From Promethearchaeota archaeon (GTDB lineage: Archaea > Asgardarchaeota > Lokiarchaeia > Sigyniarchaeales > SOKP01): DNA of 12,668 nucleotides. The DNA lies in contig RDOE01000090.1 of NCBI GenBank assembly GCA_011364975.1, positions 1-12,668 of the forward strand, given 5' to 3'. The notes beneath the pieces were generated by a model. The model saw only the letters and a list, made by a program, of their open reading frames with translations. It did no database searches and was not told the DNA's origin. Of this stretch, positions 1 through 11,200 are shown in pieces (position 1 is the stretch's first letter; the number at the start of each line of letters is the position of its first letter). The translations under genes were made by a program, and so were the position numbers.

Positions 1-3000
1 CAATTGCTACGTTGTCAACAGCAGAAAGTTTATTACAAACATCAGGATCAGTTTGGTTAAATCTTACTTATTTACATGAAAGATTAAACGTGAGTGATAC
101 ATATAATAAAACTTTCTTTATAGCTGTTCAAAGAATAAACGATTTTGGTGAGTGGGAATTTGAAAATCAAGCAGATGGCGATGATACAATTGTTTGGGAT
201 TCTATAACGGGTAATACTCCAGTTAGTAGAGATCAGTTATTAAAAGTTGATCTTTCACCGTTAGATGAAACTCCAAGACCATCAGATGTAAATCTTTTGG
301 TCAACGGTACAACGGTGAATGATATTGATTCTAATAATCAAGGATATTACTATTCTAATCAAGAATTTAGTGGTTATGGCGATAATATCGATTTTGAAGT
401 AAATGCGGATTGGTGGGAAGTATCGTGTGATGTTACAAATGTTCAATTAAACTTTACTAAATCTGATATTTTAGCTTATTCCGAATTTACAATCCCTACA
501 AGTGGACAGGATGTTCGATGGAATGTGACAAATATTGGAGGATTAAACTATTTTGATTCAAGAATAACAGATTTTAATACCATTAATTATACCATTCCTC
601 GAATTTGGAATGATGGTTCAATCAGAGTATTTAATGGAGCAACAGAAAAAACATCCAATATTAATAAAAGACTAATCGATAATAAATATCGGGAAATTCA
701 AGTTCTTAATGCAGGAAACGGCACCTTTTGGTATTTAAATGCTACTTCATCAAATCTACTCACATCTATAGACACTTTTGTTGGAGGTATCCCTCTAAAT
801 CAAGTAAATTTTTCAAATACGGTGAAATTTAATAGCACCTTTAGTGAGATCATATATGATGGTACATTAAATTTAAGCGTGTTTTCACCAATTCCGAGAT
901 ATTTGAATCATACTCAAATTGTAGATATCTCCTTAATTAGCTCAAACGATGAGTTTGACGTTTCAGACTGGAATATCTATGAAGATGTTAAAAACTATGG
1001 TATTTTCAAGATCCAAATGTCTTGGAATAATGATACAGCAGCCGGATTTCTAGAAGATTATATCACGATAATAGCAGATACTGAATTAATTTTAAGTTTG
1101 CCAAAAAATACTTTTAATTCCAGCGAAACTTTTGATTTATCAGTCTTCTTTAATGACACTGGTCAAGATTTAGGCATTGATGCAGATACCATTATATATC
1201 AGATTGGTACAGGTAGTGTAAGAACCGATAATATAACTCCACTTGGGAATGGATATTACAATATTACCATCGATTGTAATGATACAGATTTTGCGGGATA
1301 TGGAATAAAATCAATAGAAGTTAATACGAGTAAGTATTTTTATAATAATCAAACTGAGAGTATTAGTTTTTCTATTATAGGGAATACCGAATTGATAATT
1401 TTATATCCTCTTCCATTGTCATCATTTGATTCTGGAGATACCTTTAATATCACATTATTTTATAATGATACCGTGAAAAACGTTGGAATTGATGGAGCTA
1501 TCATTGAATATCAACTTAATAGTAGTTTATCATTCAAATCAGCTAGTTATGATAATTATGCTCCCGGTTATTATAATATTACATTAATTGCTGCTGATTC
1601 AGACTTTAACGGTTATGGTATTGAAGATTTAATCTTCAATGCGAGCAAACAATATTATCATAACCAAAGTGAATCACTTAGCATTAGAATTTTAGGTGAA
1701 ACGAGTCTTACAGCACTCAAAGTTCCAAGTAGAATAACCTATAATGCATCTGAAACTGTGATAATACGATTATATTTTAATGATACGGTAAAAAATATCC
1801 CCGTTGATGGAGCAACTGTATCTTATGAAATTGGATCGGCGGGATTACGCACTGATAATATAGATCCATTCAGTTTGGGACCGGGATATTATGATATTTC
1901 TATCGATTGTAATGATACTGATTTTAACTTCTATGGTGTGAAATCAATTAGTATCTTCATTAATCTTGGTAATTATCATAATAAAAGTCAAGTAATAGTT
2001 ATACAAATCTTTGGTGAAACGTCTTTATCGCTCGAAAAGGTTCCAGATCAAGCATATTATGATTCTAGTGAATCTATGGTTTTGAGTCTTTATTTCAATG
2101 ATACAGTAAAGAATCTTGGAATAATTGGAGGAACTCTCACCTATCGAATTGAATCTGGACCAATTCGATCTGATAATCTTGTCGATTTATTGAATGGTTT
2201 CTATGAAATTACAATAGATTGTAATGATACTGATTTTAATGGATATGGATCAAAATATATAACAGTATTCCTGGACAAAACATTTTACCATAATCAAACT
2301 ACTCAAACATATTTAATAGTCGTTGGATATACAGTACTTAGGATTTTAAGTCCCAACAATTTGACTGCATATTATAGTGGTCAAACTTATAACATCACCA
2401 TTGAATATTTTGATACAATAAAGAATGCAGGAATTACAGGTGCTACCATTTCATACTTATTACCCTTAAGTGGTAGTCCAAGGTTTGATAACATTATAGA
2501 GATTGGAAATGGAATTTATCGAATTGAAGTTAGTGTAAACGATGGTGATTTTGATACATTTGGATATGTAGAGATTGATATTTATGCTAATCAAGACTTT
2601 TACCTCAATCGTTCCAATACCTTTACGTTCCATCGTCAAATCACGACTACAATATCGCCTTCAAATTTTCCAGATCTAGGCAGTGTATTGCGCGGATTAA
2701 ATATTAGCTACATGTTTAATTATTCTGATACTGATGATTCAGCAATTCTAAATGCAAATTGGTCCTTAATTGGTTTGAGTTATGGATTTTTATTTTACTT
2801 ACAAGAAAATGGCAATGGTAATTACACCTTTCATTTTAATACAACTTTCGCGGATGTATCACTCTCACCATTTACACTATTTTTCAATATATCGGCCTAT
2901 GGCAAACAAACACAGATACTTCAGATTAATATTGATGTGTTGATAATTTACACAGATATTGTAAATCCTGATTGGGACGATATCATTGCAAGGAATGCAA

Positions 3001-5366
3001 AAATAAATCAAACATTTACATTTTATTTCAATAATACTGTCACAAATGAACCCGTGAAAGATCTAATCTCATCTGATATAATTGTTAGAAATGAAGGAAC
3101 CAGCTCTGTTTGGAATACGGGAGATTTTAACTGGGAACTAATTAACCCTCTTAATGATGGAAATTACATATTACGTATTAGTCTTAAAGGACTAGATTCG
3201 GGGAGATATTATCTTTCTGTAAACGTATCAAAATTTCCCAATTACAATTATAGCATTTTCTTTTTTAGCTTTTACCTACGAGGTAACTTCACCGAGATTA
3301 ATATTGATTACTTTTCGGATGTTGGAGGCCAAGGTGTTCTTCAACCAACTGGACAAAACTATAGCATATACATTGAGCGCAATCTCTACGTTAATTTCAC
3401 TATAATAGATTTGGAATTTGGAAATCGATTGATTACCGGGGCAGGCACATCAGTTTTAATTCAGTACTTTGAAATTGGGAATTTATCTAACAATGGTACA
3501 CTTGGCCATACTATAGTTTATGATGCAAACACATATTCATATAAAGGTAACATATTAACATCCGCTTTTTCAATAACCTCTAATTATATCATCAATATTA
3601 CCATCTTTAGGATTAATTATGAGAATTCGACCCATTCAATCAATTTGACACTTAAAGCAAAACATACAACTAATATAACCGTATTAATACAACCCTCTGA
3701 AGTAACTGCGGGAGATTCTTTTGTAATTCATTTCCAAGTTGCTTATTTAAATGGCAGTATTTGGATACCTTTAACAGGGACACAAATTACTTTGACACCA
3801 TACTTCGATGGAATAGCATCTACTCCAATACTGGGATCTACGAATTCCACTGGAGGTATTTCAATTGAGATCACTATTCGAAGAGATGCTGAAAACATGA
3901 GTCTATTAGTCCAGCTAGCAAGCGGATATTATTACACCTCCTATGAATTCACTATCACAGATATCGAAGTGATTCCATTTAATCCTGGATTTAGATTTGA
4001 AGATATATTACCCTATATAATAATAATAGGTGCTGCGGTAGCTGTGGCAGGCGGTTCTGTGGGTGTTTATCGTGGAGTAGTGGTTCCCAAAAAAAGGGAA
4101 AAACAGCGAATTCTAAGTGAAGTAAAAACCATTTTTGATGATGCTATTAATTTAGAACATATTTTAGTTCTCTATAAAGCTACTGGAACCTGTATATTCT
4201 TTAAATCTTATGGCTCGGAACAGATTGACCCCGAATTAATTGGCGGATTTTTAACAGCTGTATCTTCCTTCGGAAAAGAAATGGTTGCTCAGGAAGCACT
4301 AAATGAGATTTCATATGGAGATAAAATGTTATTATTAGCCGATGGTGAATTCATTAGGGTAGCATTAGTTTTAGGAAAGAAAGCTTCATTAATCCTTCGA
4401 CAACATCTGAAAGAGTTTATTGATAAATTTGAAAAGGTATATAATGAAGTTCTGCCAAATTGGAGAGGACAATTGAATTATTTCAGGAATGCAGGAGAAA
4501 TAGTTGATGATATTTTCAATACTTCAATAATACTACCGCATCAAATAACATACGATTTTTCAAATGTGAAAGATTTAAAAAACCCGCATTCAAAAGATAT
4601 TCTTAAGATTGCCCATAGCTGTTGCGAAGAAACGGAACGGGAATTCTTCTTCATTGCTACTTTACTCAAGGATGCATCAGAAAAAACCAATAAGGACACT
4701 GCAGAAATCTTTATGGGTGTAAAGGAACTAAGGGATAAGAGAATATTAATTCCAATTGAAATCTCTGCGATTGAACCACAAGCAATATCTCAACAGGAAA
4801 TGAACTTGATAGGTCAAAAAGTATCAGGACTTTCAAATCTTACGGCAGAAGAGAAGCAAAAATTAGTAGCTGATTTAGCTCAGATGGGTCCAATGCAAAG
4901 GGAGGCTTATCTGTCAAGTCTAATGAGTCGTCAGGAAATTATTTCTGCACCAATTAAAATGAAAGTTGGGACAACAGAAATAGAAAGTCAGAAGTCTGCT
5001 AAAAATAAAATGAAAGAGTTACTTAAGAGAGCTAGAATTGCTAAAGGAAAGAAAAATTACACTACGTCAATTGAATATCTTCATGATGCTGCCATGATCG
5101 CTTCTAGTTGGGAATTATCGAATGATTTCTTAAAGATTGAAGAGTATACACGTATTATTAAAATTGAAGATTTAACAATTATTAAGAAAGAAGCTGAACA
5201 AACCGCTAAGTTAGCAGTGAAAAAGAAGAATTATGCAGAAGCCGCAGAAACATATAAAAAAGCTTCAAAAATAGCTTCAGAGATTTTTAAATTAGGCGCA
5301 ACTGAAATGACAAAAGAAGTTAAAAGATTAACAAATAAAGCTAATGAGTATGAAAAGCTTAAGTAA
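1..5366 (+). CDS. Giant single-pass cell-surface protein (5'-truncated): Ig-like/beta-sandwich repeat ectodomain, TM helix, cytoplasmic longin-like + winged-helix-like + TPR/MIT-like helical tail
   Basis: The frame is open from the window edge (att gct acg ttg...), so the TTG at 12 is probably not the true start, and no signal peptide is visible. The ectodomain is beta-strand-rich with more than 50 N-x-S/T sequons by hand count, against about 3 after the TM. Hydrophobic helix ILPYIIIIGAAVAVAGGSVGVY at ~4005-4070 is followed by basic KKREKQR (positive-inside rule). The K/E-rich cytoplasmic tail ends at TAA 5364-5366. Confidence 0.9.
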   Translation, partial: IATLSTAESLLQTSGSVWLNLTYLHERLNVSDTYNKTFFIAVQRINDFGEWEFENQADGDDTIVWDSITGNTPVSRDQLLKVDLSPLDETPRPSDVNLLVNGTTVNDIDSNNQGYYYSNQEFSGYGDNIDFEVNADWWEVSCDVTNVQLNFTKSDILAYSEFTIPTSGQDVRWNVTNIGGLNYFDSRITDFNTINYTIPRIWNDGSIRVFNGATEKTSNINKRLIDNKYREIQVLNAGNGTFWYLNATSSNLLTSIDTFVGGIPLNQVNFSNTVKFNSTFSEIIYDGTLNLSVFSPIPRYLNHTQIVDISLISSNDEFDVSDWNIYEDVKNYGIFKIQMSWNNDTAAGFLEDYITIIADTELILSLPKNTFNSSETFDLSVFFNDTGQDLGIDADTIIYQIGTGSVRTDNITPLGNGYYNITIDCNDTDFAGYGIKSIEVNTSKYFYNNQTESISFSIIGNTELIILYPLPLSSFDSGDTFNITLFYNDTVKNVGIDGAIIEYQLNSSLSFKSASYDNYAPGYYNITLIAADSDFNGYGIEDLIFNASKQYYHNQSESLSIRILGETSLTALKVPSRITYNASETVIIRLYFNDTVKNIPVDGATVSYEIGSAGLRTDNIDPFSLGPGYYDISIDCNDTDFNFYGVKSISIFINLGNYHNKSQVIVIQIFGETSLSLEKVPDQAYYDSSESMVLSLYFNDTVKNLGIIGGTLTYRIESGPIRSDNLVDLLNGFYEITIDCNDTDFNGYGSKYITVFLDKTFYHNQTTQTYLIVVGYTVLRILSPNNLTAYYSGQTYNITIEYFDTIKNAGITGATISYLLPLSGSPRFDNIIEIGNGIYRIEVSVNDGDFDTFGYVEIDIYANQDFYLNRSNTFTFHRQITTTISPSNFPDLGSVLRGLNISYMFNYSDTDDSAILNANWSLIGLSYGFLFYLQENGNGNYTFHFNTTFADVSLSPFTLFFNISAYGKQTQILQINIDVLIIYTDIVNPDWDDIIARNAKINQTFTFYFNNTVTNEPVKDLISSDIIVRNEGTSSVWNTGDFNWELINPLNDGNYILRISLKGLDSGRYYLSVNVSKFPNYNYSIFFFSFYLRGNFTEINIDYFSDVGGQGVLQPTGQNYSIYIERNLYVNFTIIDLEFGNRLITGAGTSVLIQYFEIGNLSNNGTLGHTIVYDANTYSYKGNILTSAFSITSNYIINITIFRINYENSTHSINLTLKAKHTTNITVLIQPSEVTAGDSFVIHFQVAYLNGSIWIPLTGTQITLTPYFDGIASTPILGSTNSTGGISIEITIRRDAENMSLLVQLASGYYYTSYEFTITDIEVIPFNPGFRFEDILPYIIIIGAAVAVAGGSVGVYRGVVVPKKREKQRILSEVKTIFDDAINLEHILVLYKATGTCIFFKSYGSEQIDPELIGGFLTAVSSFGKEMVAQEALNEISYGDKMLLLADGEFIRVALVLGKKASLILRQHLKEFIDKFEKVYNEVLPNWRGQLNYFRNAGEIVDDIFNTSIILPHQITYDFSNVKDLKNPHSKDILKIAHSCCEETEREFFFIATLLKDASEKTNKDTAEIFMGVKELRDKRILIPIEISAIEPQAISQQEMNLIGQKVSGLSNLTAEEKQKLVADLAQMGPMQREAYLSSLMSRQEIISAPIKMKVGTTEIESQKSAKNKMKELLKRARIAKGKKNYTTSIEYLHDAAMIASSWELSNDFLKIEEYTRIIKIEDLTIIKKEAEQTAKLAVKKKNYAEAAETYKKASKIASEIFKLGATEMTKEVKRLTNKANEYEKLK
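1074..2639 (+). repeat. Five tandem ~102-106 aa Ig-like repeats (period 306-318 nt), with about four more diverged units to ~3980
   Basis: Units start at 1074 (ADTEL), 1380 (GNTEL), 1695 (GETSL), 2013 (GETSL) and 2325 (GYTVL). Shared consensus: GxTxL...Y/FxSxET..L.F/YNDTVKNxGIxGA.I.Y....RxDN....GxGYYxIxIDCNDTDFxGYG......K.YYHNQS/T. A 23-nt identity GATTGTAATGATACTGATTTTAA occurs at 1905-1927 and 2217-2239. Confidence 0.9.
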
Positions 5367-5424: not shown

Positions 5425-6720
5425 TTAATCAGTTATACCATTTTCGGTTATACTAAATACTGCTTCACCTTCAGGTAAATGAGGTGCATCAACAATTTTG
5501 GCTACTCTTTGTTCACCCTTTCCTTTCCTTAGATAAATTCTAATAGTTGAACCATGAGCAATAATATTACCTCCTGCAGCTTGTAATGGATTTCCATAAA
5601 ACACATCTGGCTTCGATTGGACTTGATTAGTAACTACTACTGCCAATTCTGGATTAATTTCTGAGAGTCTTAATAAGTCATGAAGATGGGAATTAATAGT
5701 CTGTTGTCGATTTGCTAACGTACCTCTTCCAATATATTCACTCCTAAAATGACCAATTATTGAGTCAACAATAATCAATTTAATGTTTTTTTCTTTGATG
5801 ATATTAGCAGCTTCCTTAATAAGAAGTATTTGATGATCCGAATTGTAAGCTCTACCAAAGATAATATTCTTCAAAACTTGTTTATGATCTAAATCAAGCC
5901 CGTCTGCCATTTGGATAATCCTTTCAGGGCGAAAGGTACCTTCGGTGTCTATGTATAAAGCATTTCCTTCTAAACCTCCATGTTCTCTTGTTAATTGTAC
6001 GTTTACGCATAGTTGATGAGCTAATTGGGTTTTTCCAGTTCTGAATTCACCAAAAAATTCTGTTACACTTCCAGTCTCGATCCCACCACCTAGTAGATCG
6101 TCAAGCTCTTGACTTCCTGTTAAAATTTTAGCTATTGTTCTTCTATGTTCCCACACATCCTCTGCAGATTTAAATCCAATATTCAATTTATCCATCGATG
6201 ATTTAATTAGCTTAACAATAGTTTTTTCACCTAGTCCAGATTCTTCTTGAATAATACTTGGAGGTGTATATGCTATAGATTCTAAACTATTGAATCCAGA
6301 TTTAATTAGTTTCTTAAGGGTTGCCTCTCCAACGCCCGGTAACTTTTTAACAGCTTCAACGCAAGCATCTGCACCATTATCAAGATTCACATCATCATCA
6401 TCTATATCATCAGCAATTTCATCATTATCAGGATTTTCCTCATCTTCAAGATCATCCTCAGTATCTAAGAAATCGATATTTTCCTCTACCTCTATATCTT
6501 CAAAATTATCATCATAATCGGCAGCTTCCCCATTTTCCTCATCTAATTCATTATTAGAAACCATTTCATCAGGATTTTCTTCATCTTCAATAGCTGTTGC
6601 AAATTTTAGATGTTCTTTATAGATTTTTCCTTTTGTATGATTCCTTTTACATTCCTGACAAAAATAAGGCTTTCCCATCTCGATTTGGGCACCATTACTT
6701 ACTTCTGTAGCTTTAGCCAT
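5425..6720 (-). CDS. radA: DNA repair and recombination protein RadA (Rad51/Dmc1 family) with N-terminal extension
   Basis: HhH N-domain ([14 protein letters not shown]), polymerisation motif [18 protein letters not shown], Walker [31 protein letters not shown], Walker B LIIVDS, L1 loop [14 protein letters not shown]-terminal [19 protein letters not shown]. Confidence 0.98.
6427..6590 (-). repeat. Internal direct repeat in the RadA acidic tract (EDEENPD x2)
   Basis: ATCAGGATTTTC(C/T)TCATCTTCAA at 6427-6449 and 6568-6590, 22/23 identical, 141 nt (47 aa) apart. Confidence 0.8.
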
Positions 6721-8297: not shown

Positions 8298-9731
8298 TTA
8301 CATACTGGGTCGATTGATAAATGCATTATATAATACCTTAATAGCTTTTTTACAATTAGATCTATCAATAATCGCGGTAAAATTAAGTTCAGACGATCCT
8401 TGTGCAATTGCTTTAATGTTTATATTGTTATCTCCTAACGATGTAAACACTTTTCCAGCGATTCCGGGAGTGTGTAATAATCCTGCACCGATTACTGCAA
8501 CTAATGAGATTTCATTATCAATTTTTATTTTAAACCACTGTTTTCCAAATAACTCAGAATTTCTTAATAAAAAACTAACTTTTTTAGAATCTTCAAAGTC
8601 AATGCCAAAAGTTATATTATTTTCGGAAGAGCTTTGTGAAATGAATACAAGGTTAATATTATTATTTCCTAAAAGCGAGAAAAGCTTGGATGCAGTTCCG
8701 GATAAGGGGATCATTGTATCACCAATAATAGTCACCATAGATAGTTGATAAATAGAGGTTATAGCCTTGACTATTTTTTCATCCTGTATTATTTCTCTCG
8801 TAATAGTGGTATATTCATTAGATTCAGGATCTTCAAAAGATCTAATTTCCGAAGGGATATTACCTTTCTCATTAATATCTAAACATAAAGGATGGAGTAT
8901 TTTTGAGCCGAAAAAAGAGAGTTCTTTAGCTTCTACATATGAAATTTGCTTTAATAAATCAGTTTTGTCAGAAAGTTTAGGATCTGCATTTAGAATACCT
9001 TTTACATCCTTCCAGTAGATAATTTTGCAATTACAAGCAGTCCGTAATGAATAAGCTATTATGGCAGCCGTTAGATCACTTCCACCCCTTCCTAAAGTAG
9101 TGATCTTTTTATCTGTCGTTGAGCCAAAATATCCAGTAATACAGTGAATATCAGTTGCATTATTTTCTAAAGAAGGGACAAACTTTTCTTTTATTAATGC
9201 TTCAGTTTCTTCTAAAAGTGGTAATGCTCTACTAAAATTATCATCTGTTATGATTAACGTATCTGAGGAATAGTAATGGGATCTTAAATCAATACTTTTT
9301 AGAAATTGAGATAGAATGAAAGTACTCAATTTTTCTCCATAGGAGCTAATTAAATCTTGTATATCTAAGCTTGGCCTAATTAGTCTAATAACTTGCCCTA
9401 ACTGAATTAATTCCTCAATATTTTTCTGAAGGAACGATCTTGATTGATGGAACTCCGCACTATCTTCATCTAAAATCGCATAAATTAATTTAATGTGAAT
9501 ATTATTTATTTCCTCAATTATCAAATTACATTCATTATCTTCACTACAGGATTTAGTATAAAATTCTAAAAGTTTATCTGTTATCCCATTTAATGCAGAA
9601 GTGACAGTTATAACTCTCGAATGTGCTAAATAGTGTTTGACAATCTTGGCGATCTGTTGAAATGAGTCCTTGTTTTTTAGACATGAACCACCAAATTTCA
9701 TTACAACAAGATCTTTCATTCGATTTACCAT
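8298..9731 (-). CDS. lysC: Aspartate kinase (monofunctional, two ACT domains); start may be ATG at 9719
   Basis: VVMKFGGS, D...S.GEKLS, TTLGRGGSDLTA, WKDV.G..NADP, ISY.EA.EL..FG.KILHP, two ACT repeats (ISQSSSE; GAGL..TPGIAGKVF..L....INI.AIAQGSSE.N). Confidence 0.95.
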   Translation of the reverse strand: MVNRMKDLVVMKFGGSCLKNKDSFQQIAKIVKHYLAHSRVITVTSALNGITDKLLEFYTKSCSEDNECNLIIEEINNIHIKLIYAILDEDSAEFHQSRSFLQKNIEELIQLGQVIRLIRPSLDIQDLISSYGEKLSTFILSQFLKSIDLRSHYYSSDTLIITDDNFSRALPLLEETEALIKEKFVPSLENNATDIHCITGYFGSTTDKKITTLGRGGSDLTAAIIAYSLRTACNCKIIYWKDVKGILNADPKLSDKTDLLKQISYVEAKELSFFGSKILHPLCLDINEKGNIPSEIRSFEDPESNEYTTITREIIQDEKIVKAITSIYQLSMVTIIGDTMIPLSGTASKLFSLLGNNNINLVFISQSSSENNITFGIDFEDSKKVSFLLRNSELFGKQWFKIKIDNEISLVAVIGAGLLHTPGIAGKVFTSLGDNNINIKAIAQGSSELNFTAIIDRSNCKKAIKVLYNAFINRPSM

Positions 9732-9821
9732 CTTAATTTACACTTATCTTAATTGAATAGAAGTAAGAGTAAACTTATAAATGTAAAATAAAATATAGGT
9801 TTCATTAAAAAATCAATATAA

Positions 9822-9840
9822 TTTACAAAAAAAACTATAA
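9822..9840 (-). terminator. T8-containing terminator candidate downstream of the 4-TM gene
   Basis: Minus strand reads TTATAGTTTTTTTTGTAAA, about 24 nt past the stop codon. Confidence 0.45.
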
Positions 9841-9863
9841 TAATTAGGAATTAACTGCAATTT

Positions 9864-10367
9864 TTATGAACTTTCTCGCTCCTCTCTTTTTACAAAAAAT
9901 CCAAATCCTATTATTACCGCTCCAATAAAAGGTCCTATCACTCCAAAGTATGGTGAATATCCCCCACCCATTGCAATCCAGTGATTATAGCCATATTGGT
10001 TATAAAATGCTTCCATCATGATAATCCAAAACAGAGTTGATGCAATTACCAATCCTGCTATCAAAAGCATCTTCCATCTGAGTCTCTTAAAATTCAATGA
10101 TAATCTGACATAGGTAAGGTTAAGAGTAATTGCGATAACACTACTCGAAAATATAATTAAGGCAAGTATCGTAGAAATTACAACTAACATTAGATCTGTT
10201 CTTAGCAAATATATAGCAAGAGGGTCAATATCTACACCTATTTGTGTCATCCAAACATAATAGAGCGTTGGATATGTATCATTATAGCTGGTAGGAGTTA
10301 AAATCGATATTAATATAATTATTGCTCCAATAATATTTAAAATCCAAAGATATTTTCTAATGTTCAT
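9864..10367 (-). CDS. Hypothetical four-TM integral membrane protein
   Basis: 167-aa ORF with four hydrophobic segments, a basic TM2-TM3 loop (KRLRWK) and a charged C-tail (KREERESS). It fills the gap between flanking genes on the same strand. Confidence 0.8.
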   Translation of the reverse strand: MNIRKYLWILNIIGAIIILISILTPTSYNDTYPTLYYVWMTQIGVDIDPLAIYLLRTDLMLVVISTILALIIFSSSVIAITLNLTYVRLSLNFKRLRWKMLLIAGLVIASTLFWIIMMEAFYNQYGYNHWIAMGGGYSPYFGVIGPFIGAVIIGFGFFVKREERESS

Positions 10368-10572
10368 TTAAAATCATAACGCAGTTAAACAATTATTATC
10401 TATCGAGATCAAATGTCACTTAAAAAAGATTATCACGTATAAGAATAGGTTATAAATATTCATAATTATAAGTTAAATTACTAAATTAAAAAGAGAAAAA
10501 ACGTAAGTAAAATTTACATAATCAGAATAAAATTAGATTAAGAAAAACCTTTTACAAGAAAACTATAAAGTC

Positions 10573-10581
10573 AAAAAAAAA
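10573..10581 (-). terminator. T9 terminator candidate downstream of hsp20
   Basis: A9 on the + strand (T9 on the coding strand) about 40 nt after the stop codon. Confidence 0.45.
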
Positions 10582-10618
10582 TTAGAGCAGATAGAGCAAT
10601 TAAACAATATTATATGAC

Positions 10619-11188
10619 TTATTTAATCTCTATCTTTTTCCTCTCTGGTTTTGGAGGCTCAACTTTTGGAATTTTAACCGATAAGATTCCTTTCTCTAAA
10701 TTTGCTTCGATCTTGTCTGCATCTATGTTTTCCGGTAAACTAAACGCTCTGTAATAGCTAGAAGAATGATATTCACGTCTAACTAGTTGTCCATCTTTCT
10801 CTTCTCTCTTTTCTTCCTTTTGCTCTCCCTTAATCTCTAACATCCCATCTTGAATGGTTAAATTAATGTCAGCTTTATCCATACCGGGTAATTCAGCAGT
10901 AATATTAAATGCATCCTTAGATTCAGAAATGTTTGATAATGGAGTTCTAAAGAGGGGTTCGTCATCTCTTATTGCTAAATTAAAGGGTCTATATCTCCTT
11001 CTGCTAGTTGGCCACCAAAAATCGTCGAAAAAGTTGTTTCGTAAGTCATCGAACATTCGATCCATCTCTTGGAATAATGAAAATGGATTTTCTCTTCTAA
11101 TCGTTAATTCTCGCGATTTCTTGCCTTCTTGATTTTGTTCTTCCTTTGATTCTTTTTTCTTAACTTCAATTTTTTCTTTGTCTGTCAT
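10619..11188 (-). CDS. Small heat-shock protein, Hsp20/alpha-crystallin family
   Basis: NPFSLFQEMDRMF N-region, ITAELPGMDK.DI, LEIKGE, RREY....YYRAFSLPE.ID...IEA.LEKGILSVKIPK, C-terminal IxI motif KKIEIK. Start reassigned to ATG 11188 because the ORF-track GTG (11197) lies inside the GAGGTG Shine-Dalgarno. Confidence 0.96.
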   Translation of the reverse strand: MTDKEKIEVKKKESKEEQNQEGKKSRELTIRRENPFSLFQEMDRMFDDLRNNFFDDFWWPTSRRRYRPFNLAIRDDEPLFRTPLSNISESKDAFNITAELPGMDKADINLTIQDGMLEIKGEQKEEKREEKDGQLVRREYHSSSYYRAFSLPENIDADKIEANLEKGILSVKIPKVEPPKPERKKIEIK

Positions 11189-11194
11189 ACAATA

Positions 11195-11200
11195 CACCTC
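11195..11200 (-). promoter_or_regulatory. Shine-Dalgarno GAGGTG of hsp20
   Basis: Minus strand reads AAAGAGGTGtattgtATG, 6-nt spacing. Confidence 0.7.

Follow-up and report, generated by a model that had tools for sequence, protein, structure and literature searches.

Introduction

Through the longin domains of MON1, TRAPP, SRX and the adaptins, these proteins dock small GTPases or partner longin or roadblock domains. This docking role is summarised in PMC10933270. In this study, a 12,668 nt stretch of DNA from a Promethearchaeota archaeon (contig RDOE01000090.1 of assembly GCA_011364975.1; hereafter the window) was analysed with respect to a giant gene that runs off its 5′ end and encodes a sequon-rich N-terminal part, one transmembrane (TM) helix and a longin-type C-terminal tail (Table 1). 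As judged from sequence, Lokiarchaeia possess a conserved type I surface glycoprotein, usually in single copy, of which the encoded protein is the local orthologue.

Per genome, Asgard archaea encode some forty longin domains and dozens of small GTPases. In detail, 41 longin-like domains were counted for Lokiarchaeum, and longin–GTPase fusions are known, including in MK-D1 (PMC4917890, PMC10933270). In the available parts of these two papers, the Asgard longins are soluble or GTPase-fused and are not described as tails of single-pass surface glycoproteins. The sites of action and native regulators of Asgard GTPases and longins are stated as unknown (PMC4917890, PMC11914678). Further, the preprint of Makarova et al. 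describes patchily distributed Asgard proteins in which Vps28-C or a steadiness box is combined with longin, adaptin appendage, TPR, Ig-like and HTH/PCI modules (PMC11188069). The window protein resembles them in its longin domain, its TPR-like repeats and possibly its Ig-like modules, whereas neither Vps28-C, steadiness box nor adaptin appendage was found in its tail at Pfam E ≤ 10, and its family is syntenic and widespread in its order rather than patchy. Overlap between the two sets is possible.

Among eukaryotic proteins, the best sequence matches in the PDB for the longin family profile of the tail were MON1 longin domain 1 and TRAPP Bet5/TRAPPC1, small, enzyme-free alpha/beta modules with an established role in docking small GTPases. 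Unlike the tri-longin MON1/CCZ1, the window protein has a single longin copy, which follows the TM helix of a predicted giant extracellular glycoprotein at a distance of about 50 residues, on its inner side. Longin SNAREs and SR-alpha SRX–SR-beta are alike in being membrane-held longins or scaffolds that recruit cytoplasmic partners. However, the Pfam and NCBIfam scans detected neither synaptobrevin nor any SNARE family, the order here is ectodomain–TM–longin with the longin C-terminal of the helix, the reverse of the tail-anchored longin SNAREs, and the similarity to SRX reached E 0.13 only. Integrins and cadherins likewise combine an extracellular repeat stalk with a non-enzymatic tail, but the tails show no homology.

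On the cell surface, the closest counterparts are the archaeal S-layer glycoproteins with a C-terminal anchor, which are also large, sequon-dense, and equipped with a signal peptide and a single C-terminal TM helix; to our knowledge, none of the known ones carries a large folded cytoplasmic domain. Cultured Lokiarchaeia have no ordered lattice (PMC9834061), and cryo-tomography showed an unordered coat and complex surface proteins on them (PMC9834061; bioRxiv 10.1101/2025.07.22.663070). For the Promethearchaeaceae, adhesin-like proteins rich in FN3 were described, along with a ‘badge’ protein, very large and of beta-sheet type, that occurs in all reported genomes of the family. These are similar to the window protein in being very large, conserved and membrane-spanning with a signal peptide, and they are beta-rich, as the window ectodomain may be; no longin tail is mentioned in the part of that report at hand (bioRxiv 10.1101/2025.07.22.663070). 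Compared by description only, the ‘badge’ protein could belong to the window family. The single domains are thus known ones; what appears to be new, as far as the available literature goes, is the conserved ectodomain–TM–longin–scaffold architecture together with a wide use of the TM–longin cassette, for which no description was found, and on which supplementary material (asCOG, the proteome tables of PMC11284389, figure 6B of PMC11188069) may bear.

A Sequon-Rich Repeat Ectodomain Precedes a Single TM Helix

The sole hydrophobic segment of the window protein is followed directly by VPKKREKQR, and the amino acid composition flips at this helix, with I, N, S, T, Y and F abundant on its N-terminal side and K, E, A and L abundant on its C-terminal side. 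N-x-S/T sequons numbered 59 in the 1334-aa ectodomain and 3 in the 431-aa tail. The ectodomain count compared with a mean of 23.8±4.3 in shuffled sequences (0 of 2000 shuffles attained 59), the tail count with 2.1±1.3, and in sequon density the giant open reading frame (ORF) ranked first in this genome, which has 1608 stop-to-stop ORFs with a length of 300 aa or more. This asymmetry, together with the positive-inside rule, therefore placed the N-terminus outside and the C-terminus inside. In the eight full-length orthologues inspected, a K-rich N-terminus is followed by a hydrophobic, signal-like segment. A type I topology is predicted from these sequence features, with a signal peptide, the ectodomain outside and the tail inside, and the ectodomain is probably N-glycosylated.

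Within the ectodomain, five tandem repeats of ~105 aa were delineated, of which the fifth, absent from the seed, was recovered by the repeat profile at E 4.9e-21. Apart from noise, the window ectodomain gave no Pfam match at E ≤ 10, and no Ig, PKD, Big or FN3 repeat family passed the threshold in seven scanned orthologues. The macroglobulin MG4 family scored 29.3 bits on orthologue P0126 (cut-off 24.7), although none of the individual stretches reaches the cut-off. Searched against the PDB, the repeat profile gave a best E of 0.31. The ectodomain may adopt a beta-sandwich fold. S-layer families were absent from the Pfam and NCBIfam scans of the protein, and the PDB S-layer protein MA0829 was reached at E 1.1 only. 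The original prediction, which was made from the letters of the window, had proposed one TM helix, an outward N-terminus and a sequon-rich repeat ectodomain, naming reversed topology and membership of an already characterised S-layer or structural family lacking cytoplasmic partners as outcomes that would speak against it. The first three are borne out by these results, whereas the proposed Ig type of the repeats had no sequence match; the topology is not reversed, and no characterised S-layer family matched.

The Tail Begins with a Longin-Type Domain

No enzyme family was found in the tail by Pfam or NCBIfam, the whole protein and its pieces yielding nothing above threshold. The tail had been described as ~425 aa long and enzyme-free; its enzyme-free character stands, and its length is corrected to 431 aa.

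A profile of the tail detected paralogues in its own genome, and 6 of the 17 scanned gave a match at E < 0.05 to the Pfam family PF19036 (Fuz_longin_1), a model of longin domain 1 in FUZ, MON1 and HPS1. The cut-off of this family, 26.1 bits, was exceeded by L097 with 42 bits and by L093 with 30.5 bits, both small stand-alone proteins, and one of the two also matched Intu_longin_1 and Longin. A hidden Markov model iterated from the tail converged on 31 ORFs that included L097 and L093 (E 1.9e-19 and 2.4e-19). Consistently, the reverse search seeded from L097 and L093 alone reached the window tail in its second round, at E 4.4e-29, and settled at 39 ORFs. Roadblock proteins stayed apart: the genome scan with Robl_LC7 (PF03259) gave 14 matches, nine over the cut-off and none in the window ORF, and the iterated longin set took in none of these nine. 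An hhalign comparison of the longin profile with the roadblock proteins of the genome gave 68.5% over 56 columns, owing to the shared core fold, and this is a relation at the superfold level only. The Pfam Longin family PF13774 had no match in the genome and none in 14 control genomes either, hence its scan is uninformative.

The combined profile A2, built from the window, three orthologues and 19 paralogues, was then compared with all PDB sequences. It matched longin domain 1 of MON1 (8c7g_C, E 8.8e-6; 8jbe_C, E 9.4e-6) and TRAPP Bet5 (7ea3_D, E 4.9e-5), followed by MglB (6izw_B, E 0.004), an AP sigma subunit (9c5c_S, E ~0.05) and SRX (5ck3_A, E 0.13). The first tail domain (TD1), proposed originally to be of longin type and stated to be refuted as such if the tail matched neither longin nor other scaffold folds, is therefore assigned by sequence comparison to the longin superfamily, of the MON1/Bet5 kind; the assignment is sound at the family level and transitive for the window sequence. 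Three results weigh against it, and with it against the docking role proposed below: the window longin segment has no direct Pfam match and reaches no Pfam longin threshold; 19 of the 23 rows of A2, on which the PDB matches rest, are paralogues; and the whole-tail profile alone found no longin structure in the PDB.

Composition of the Remaining Tail

The domain that follows the longin, designated TD2, is conserved and resembled no known family. Its profile had a best PDB match at E 0.049 (APC8), its iterated profile found the window itself only, and a Pfam scan of each of 14 members showed no consistent family, with one winged-helix match at E 0.093 in a single member; to the eye, TD2 gives the impression of a winged-helix-like fold. 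After a linker, the last ~125 residues form two units bearing a motif common to TPR and MIT domains; their spacing is ~62-65 aa, whereas TPR repeats are 34 residues long. Pfam TPR_2 matched the tail at E 0.0045 (17.4 bits, under the cut-off of 27). The iterated unit profile tied the two units to 14 units of a single large ORF on contig C132 and to other ORFs, helical repeats of this kind being prone to drift in such searches. Against the PDB, the unit profile A5 matched designed TPR proteins strongly, but through one 21-residue motif counted many times, and natural TPRs at E 0.02-0.2. The C132 ORF itself encodes 2351 aa (nt 11903-18955, + strand; loci L101-L109) and contains at least 14 TPR/MIT-like units, one of which passes the Pfam MIT cut-off with 32.6 bits.

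The Tail Recurs as a Module in Proteins of Different Design

Among the 39 longin ORFs of this genome, a number of similar order to the published counts for Asgard longins of the same family, six are single-pass proteins with the longin 43-60 residues past the TM helix; most of these have a sequon-rich N-terminal part, and one is a fragment. Three more are polytopic membrane proteins with a C-terminal longin, four carry P-loop GTPase domains (one confirmed as Arf/Ras-like), and the remaining ones are soluble. A soluble 457-aa paralogue on contig C137 has the identical three-part layout of the tail without a TM helix, and was matched at E < 1e-100 in most of 41 sampled genomes of the taxonomic family of the window. 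In P0313 and P0309, two soluble proteins from metagenomes, a complete tail (54-60% identity) is fused to a peptidase C14 (caspase) domain, again without a TM helix, and the shorter relative P0171 has ectodomain, TM helix, longin and TD2 without the C-terminal units. The segment between caspase and tail in P0313 and P0309 looks roadblock-like by eye.

Conservation, Synteny and Distribution of the Family

Of 7998 candidates scored in a word-indexed search with the tail, 162 proteins reached E ≤ 1e-3, with details for 120 of them. The tails of these 120 were 54-78% identical over 79-100% of the query, nearly all at full length, in proteins of 983 to 2731 aa in total. Where source names were present among them, all read ‘hypothetical’ apart from one ‘PKD domain-containing’, and the named organisms were Lokiarchaeota, Promethearchaeota, another Asgard taxon or metagenomes; the family is uncharacterised and Asgard-labelled, in support of the earlier suggestion of an undescribed system. 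The lengths of orthologues clustered near 1555, 1870 and 2240 aa, which together with the orthologue alignment points to gain and loss of ~105-aa modules. An exhaustive search without a profile yielded 1339 representatives at E ≤ 1e-3, of which 490 reached 1e-10 and 92 reached 1e-30. Tail positions 1-430 are covered by the closest of them, and many of the distant ones cover only ~1-230, at the C-terminus of large proteins. In one distant relative, P0197, the N-terminal part contains FG-GAP and Big_1 modules.

An architecture survey across Asgard genomes had been proposed with the original prediction. The tail profile matched at E ≤ 1e-5 in 380 of 400 genomes of the phylum, four candidates being scored per genome so that misses are not absences. 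Among the matches listed, positions 1-430 were covered at E < 1e-97 only in the four families of the window's own order, and those outside the order covered positions ~1-240 only. A contig labelled Deferrimicrobium in a metagenome-assembled genome (L061) was considered as a bacterial occurrence and rejected, since it looks Asgard-like and was probably mis-binned. It encodes an AT-rich multi-TM protein (9332-10435, + strand) with a C-terminal longin domain 34% identical to that of the window.

In species-representative genomes, 60 loci were found, and a convergent RadA gene is the next gene downstream in 52 of 59 orthologue loci, usually followed by a glucose-6-phosphate isomerase (PGI) and an aspartate kinase gene. 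Of the seven loci that lack RadA, six stop within ~420 bases of the giant gene; the seventh, L005, extends 2.5 kb downstream without it. In two relatives, a P-type ATPase gene and an ATP-grasp (ACS-beta-like) gene lie upstream of the giant gene. In locus L012, a protein of ~361 aa with a roadblock-like N-terminal half (by eye) and a Ras GTPase domain (Pfam Ras, E 1.2e-40) is encoded at 3540-4625 on the − strand, two genes upstream of the giant gene and on the opposite strand; it occupies the same place in L003, L005, L006, L011 and L013.

Conservation was quantified as mean identity to 13 full-length orthologues. The whole tail showed 76% vs. 42% for the whole ectodomain. In detail, the distal ectodomain, the repeats and the membrane-proximal ectodomain were 49%, 35% and 44% identical, the TM helix 66%, the longin domain 87%, TD2 82%, the linker 62% and the C-terminal units 64%. 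A similar contrast is hinted at between strains by one metagenome run, which diverged from the window by 5.8-6.4% at nt 408-1258, highest in the distal ectodomain, and by 0.4-0.6% over the stretch that starts at nt 1785 and takes in the tail and RadA. Fast evolution of the outer part and constraint on the inner part are in keeping with a protein that is exposed at the surface and has specific partners for its tail.

Putative Role of the Protein and Alternative Explanations

On balance we lean towards reading the protein as a surface coat or adhesion glycoprotein whose tail would serve as a membrane-anchored docking platform, most probably for small GTPases or for a longin/roadblock regulator. 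A long, N-glycosylated stalk of repeated modules, variable in number and fast-evolving, would form a coat or contact surface; the single TM helix would lead directly into a constrained, enzyme-free scaffold of longin, TD2 and two TPR/MIT-like three-helix units; the tail would tie the surface protein to cytoplasmic partners, most probably a small GTPase or a longin/roadblock regulator; and the helical C-terminal units may provide a second peptide-binding site. The tail is read as a docking platform because longins are docking surfaces and GTPase fusions of the same family occur in this genome. Any binding partner, signalling or adhesion is putative. If the proposal is right, the family would be a conserved, membrane-fixed longin platform with a predicted cell position, the inner face of the plasma membrane beneath a defined surface glycoprotein. 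Its 431-aa tail, as a soluble and well-conserved bait, would make the GTPase question testable, and the family is a candidate for an unidentified surface density on cultured Lokiarchaeia, thought to mediate contacts with syntrophic partners.

Further points count against a docking role. Longin domains also serve purely as dimerisation or structural modules. No GTPase gene was found in the window, and among the 26 loci that extend 10 kb upstream, only 6 have a roadblock-like Ras GTPase gene there, all of them from close relatives, so that its support for a GTPase link is weak. No RNA dataset covering the locus was listed. In the proteome of one cultured Lokiarchaeon, putative PKD-type S-layer proteins, which may or may not include this family, were undetected (PMC11284389).

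The main rival, to which we give limited credence, is that the protein is a passive coat, an S-layer or glycocalyx stand-in whose tail, without any part in GTPase function or signalling, only anchors it from inside and oligomerises it through longin–longin pairing. Dimerisation is common among longin and roadblock domains, and a conserved, syntenic, usually single-copy gene is what a housekeeping envelope component would be expected to have. The sequon density, the highest of the genome at ~1 per 23 ectodomain residues, lies within the range quoted for heavily glycosylated S-layer proteins (PMC11284389), and cultured Lokiarchaeia lack an ordered S-layer and display many surface densities (PMC9834061; bioRxiv 10.1101/2025.07.22.663070). 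However, a tail of this size and so much better conserved than the ectodomain exceeds the needs of an anchor, the whole tail also occurs in soluble proteins without a TM helix, and the known S-layer families are unmatched. If the tail only anchors, the result would still be a useful annotation of a syntenic, order-wide hypothetical protein.

A broader proposal, which is speculative and in our opinion rather doubtful, extends the docking platform to other proteins. The TM helix, the basic juxtamembrane motif and the longin, often with TD2, would form a cassette on the inner end of many surface proteins and transporters, a general Asgard way to bring small GTPases without lipid anchors to sites at the plasma membrane, with the window protein as its flagship receptor, coupling outside contact to GTPase-driven remodelling of membrane or cytoskeleton. 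If true, this would be a precursor of the eukaryotic principle by which receptors recruit guanine-nucleotide exchange factor platforms. Within it, an ESCRT-III link through the MIT-like units is possible.

Taken as an explanation of its own, the protein would be an ESCRT-linked cargo or adaptor, whose MIT-like units bind ESCRT-III tails and which marks or drives budding, constriction of protrusions or vesicle release; we consider this improbable. The genome encodes Vps4, and the Asgard multidomain longin/TPR/Ig-like/HTH/PCI proteins with ESCRT modules are described (PMC11188069). The A5 unit profile reached the MIT domain of VPS4A with E-values of 0.0061 and 0.013, the matches spanning most of the unit, but this profile is dominated by the C132 units. 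An hhalign comparison of the tail units with a Vps4 MIT alignment from the window's order gave 59.6% and 34.7% (0.1% for TD2 as control domain), but over only 24-35 columns, which correspond to the motif common to TPR repeats. The distant homologue P0143 matched Pfam MIT at E 8.7e-5, below the cut-off. In contrast, Pfam MIT (PF04212) reached the window tail at E 0.39-1.6 only, below threshold, and the genome MIT scan at E ≤ 0.1 found Vps4 and the 2351-aa ORF but not the window tail; a Vps28 C-terminal domain was undetected, and no ESCRT gene was found in the neighbourhood. The ESCRT connection raised originally is thereby reduced to a weak TPR/MIT-like similarity of the C-terminus.

Lastly, that ectodomain and tail are not one protein, the gene being an assembly chimera or decaying, is contradicted by the evidence: the contig does terminate inside the giant gene, and contigs of three of the four compared metagenome runs break within the repeat region (window 1100-2300), but dozens of independent assemblies, closed chromosomes included, have the ectodomain–TM–tail order in a frame that stays open for 1550-2730 aa, the window frame contains no stop in 1787 codons, and a single 2579-base contig of run X13 (nt 1785-4363) bridges ectodomain and tail.

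Truncation of the Gene at the Contig End

The window is the entire contig (C195) of a 3.74 Mb genome in 200 contigs (99.25% complete, 6.09% contamination) and has a GC content of ~31%. Since it is a whole contig, the 5′ truncation of the giant ORF is an assembly break. Residue ~18 of the window protein aligns with residue ~205-215 of full-length orthologues, indicating that ~190-215 N-terminal residues are absent, the signal peptide included. The first 230 residues of eight orthologues found no match in this genome by tblastn, and the genes upstream of the giant gene in a close relative have only 25-37% identical paralogues here. A 904-base contig of metagenome run X3 reaches 390 bases past the window start. 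Many of the loose contig ends in the repeat region resemble alternative repeat copies, and breakage within the repeats would explain both the position of the gene at a contig end and the frequent partial records in public data.

Table 1. Coordinates of the features assigned in the window (residues are those of the truncated giant protein)
Feature	Residues	Position (nt)	Strand	Basis or remark
Giant surface protein ORF		3..5366	+	1787 codons + stop; 5′-truncated at contig end
Distal ectodomain	1-361	3..1085	+	sequon-rich; no family match
Five ~105-aa repeats	362-876	1086..2630	+	repeat profile
Membrane-proximal ectodomain	877-1334	2631..4004	+	sequon-rich; no family match
Single TM helix	1335-1356	4005..4070	+	hydrophobic segment
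Juxtamembrane basic motif VPKKREK and invariant EVKTIFDDA, just N-terminal of longin core	1357-1386	4071..4160	+	
Longin-type domain (TD1)	~1387-1503	4161..4511	+	transitive profile evidence
TD2	~1504-1600	4512..4802	+	conserved; no family match
Linker segment	~1601-1660	4803..4982	+	helical by eye only
Two TPR/MIT-like units, ~62-65 aa each	~1661-1787	4983..5363	+	weak Pfam/profile similarity
RadA		5425-6720	−	Pfam Rad51, E 1.3e-95
Divergent PGI/SIS-type protein, 413 aa		7030-8271	+	PGI, E 0.04, under every Pfam threshold
167-aa ORF (no family) and Hsp20		9864-11197	−	between aspartate kinase and deaminase

Neighbouring Genes

Downstream of the giant gene, the window encodes in order the convergent RadA, the divergent PGI-like protein, aspartate kinase, the 167-aa ORF, Hsp20, a cytidine/dCMP deaminase and the start of a LarA-like gene; no tRNA or Rfam family was found in the window. 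The aspartate kinase and deaminase genes are close neighbours in the 59 orthologue loci, but the 167-aa ORF and Hsp20 had no tblastn match in any of them, so that the pair looks like a local two-gene insertion. RadA carries an N-terminal extension of ~115 aa, which opens with a CxxC...H motif resembling a zinc ribbon and includes a long acidic linker, rich in D/E, ahead of the HhH domain. Its tblastn matches in relatives fell into two classes, of ~312 aa and ~420 aa, indicating that this extension is variable. The divergent PGI/SIS-type gene that adjoins RadA is conserved across the order, and the NCBIfam glucose-6-phosphate isomerase models matched its product at E 4.5e-35, far under their curated cut-offs.

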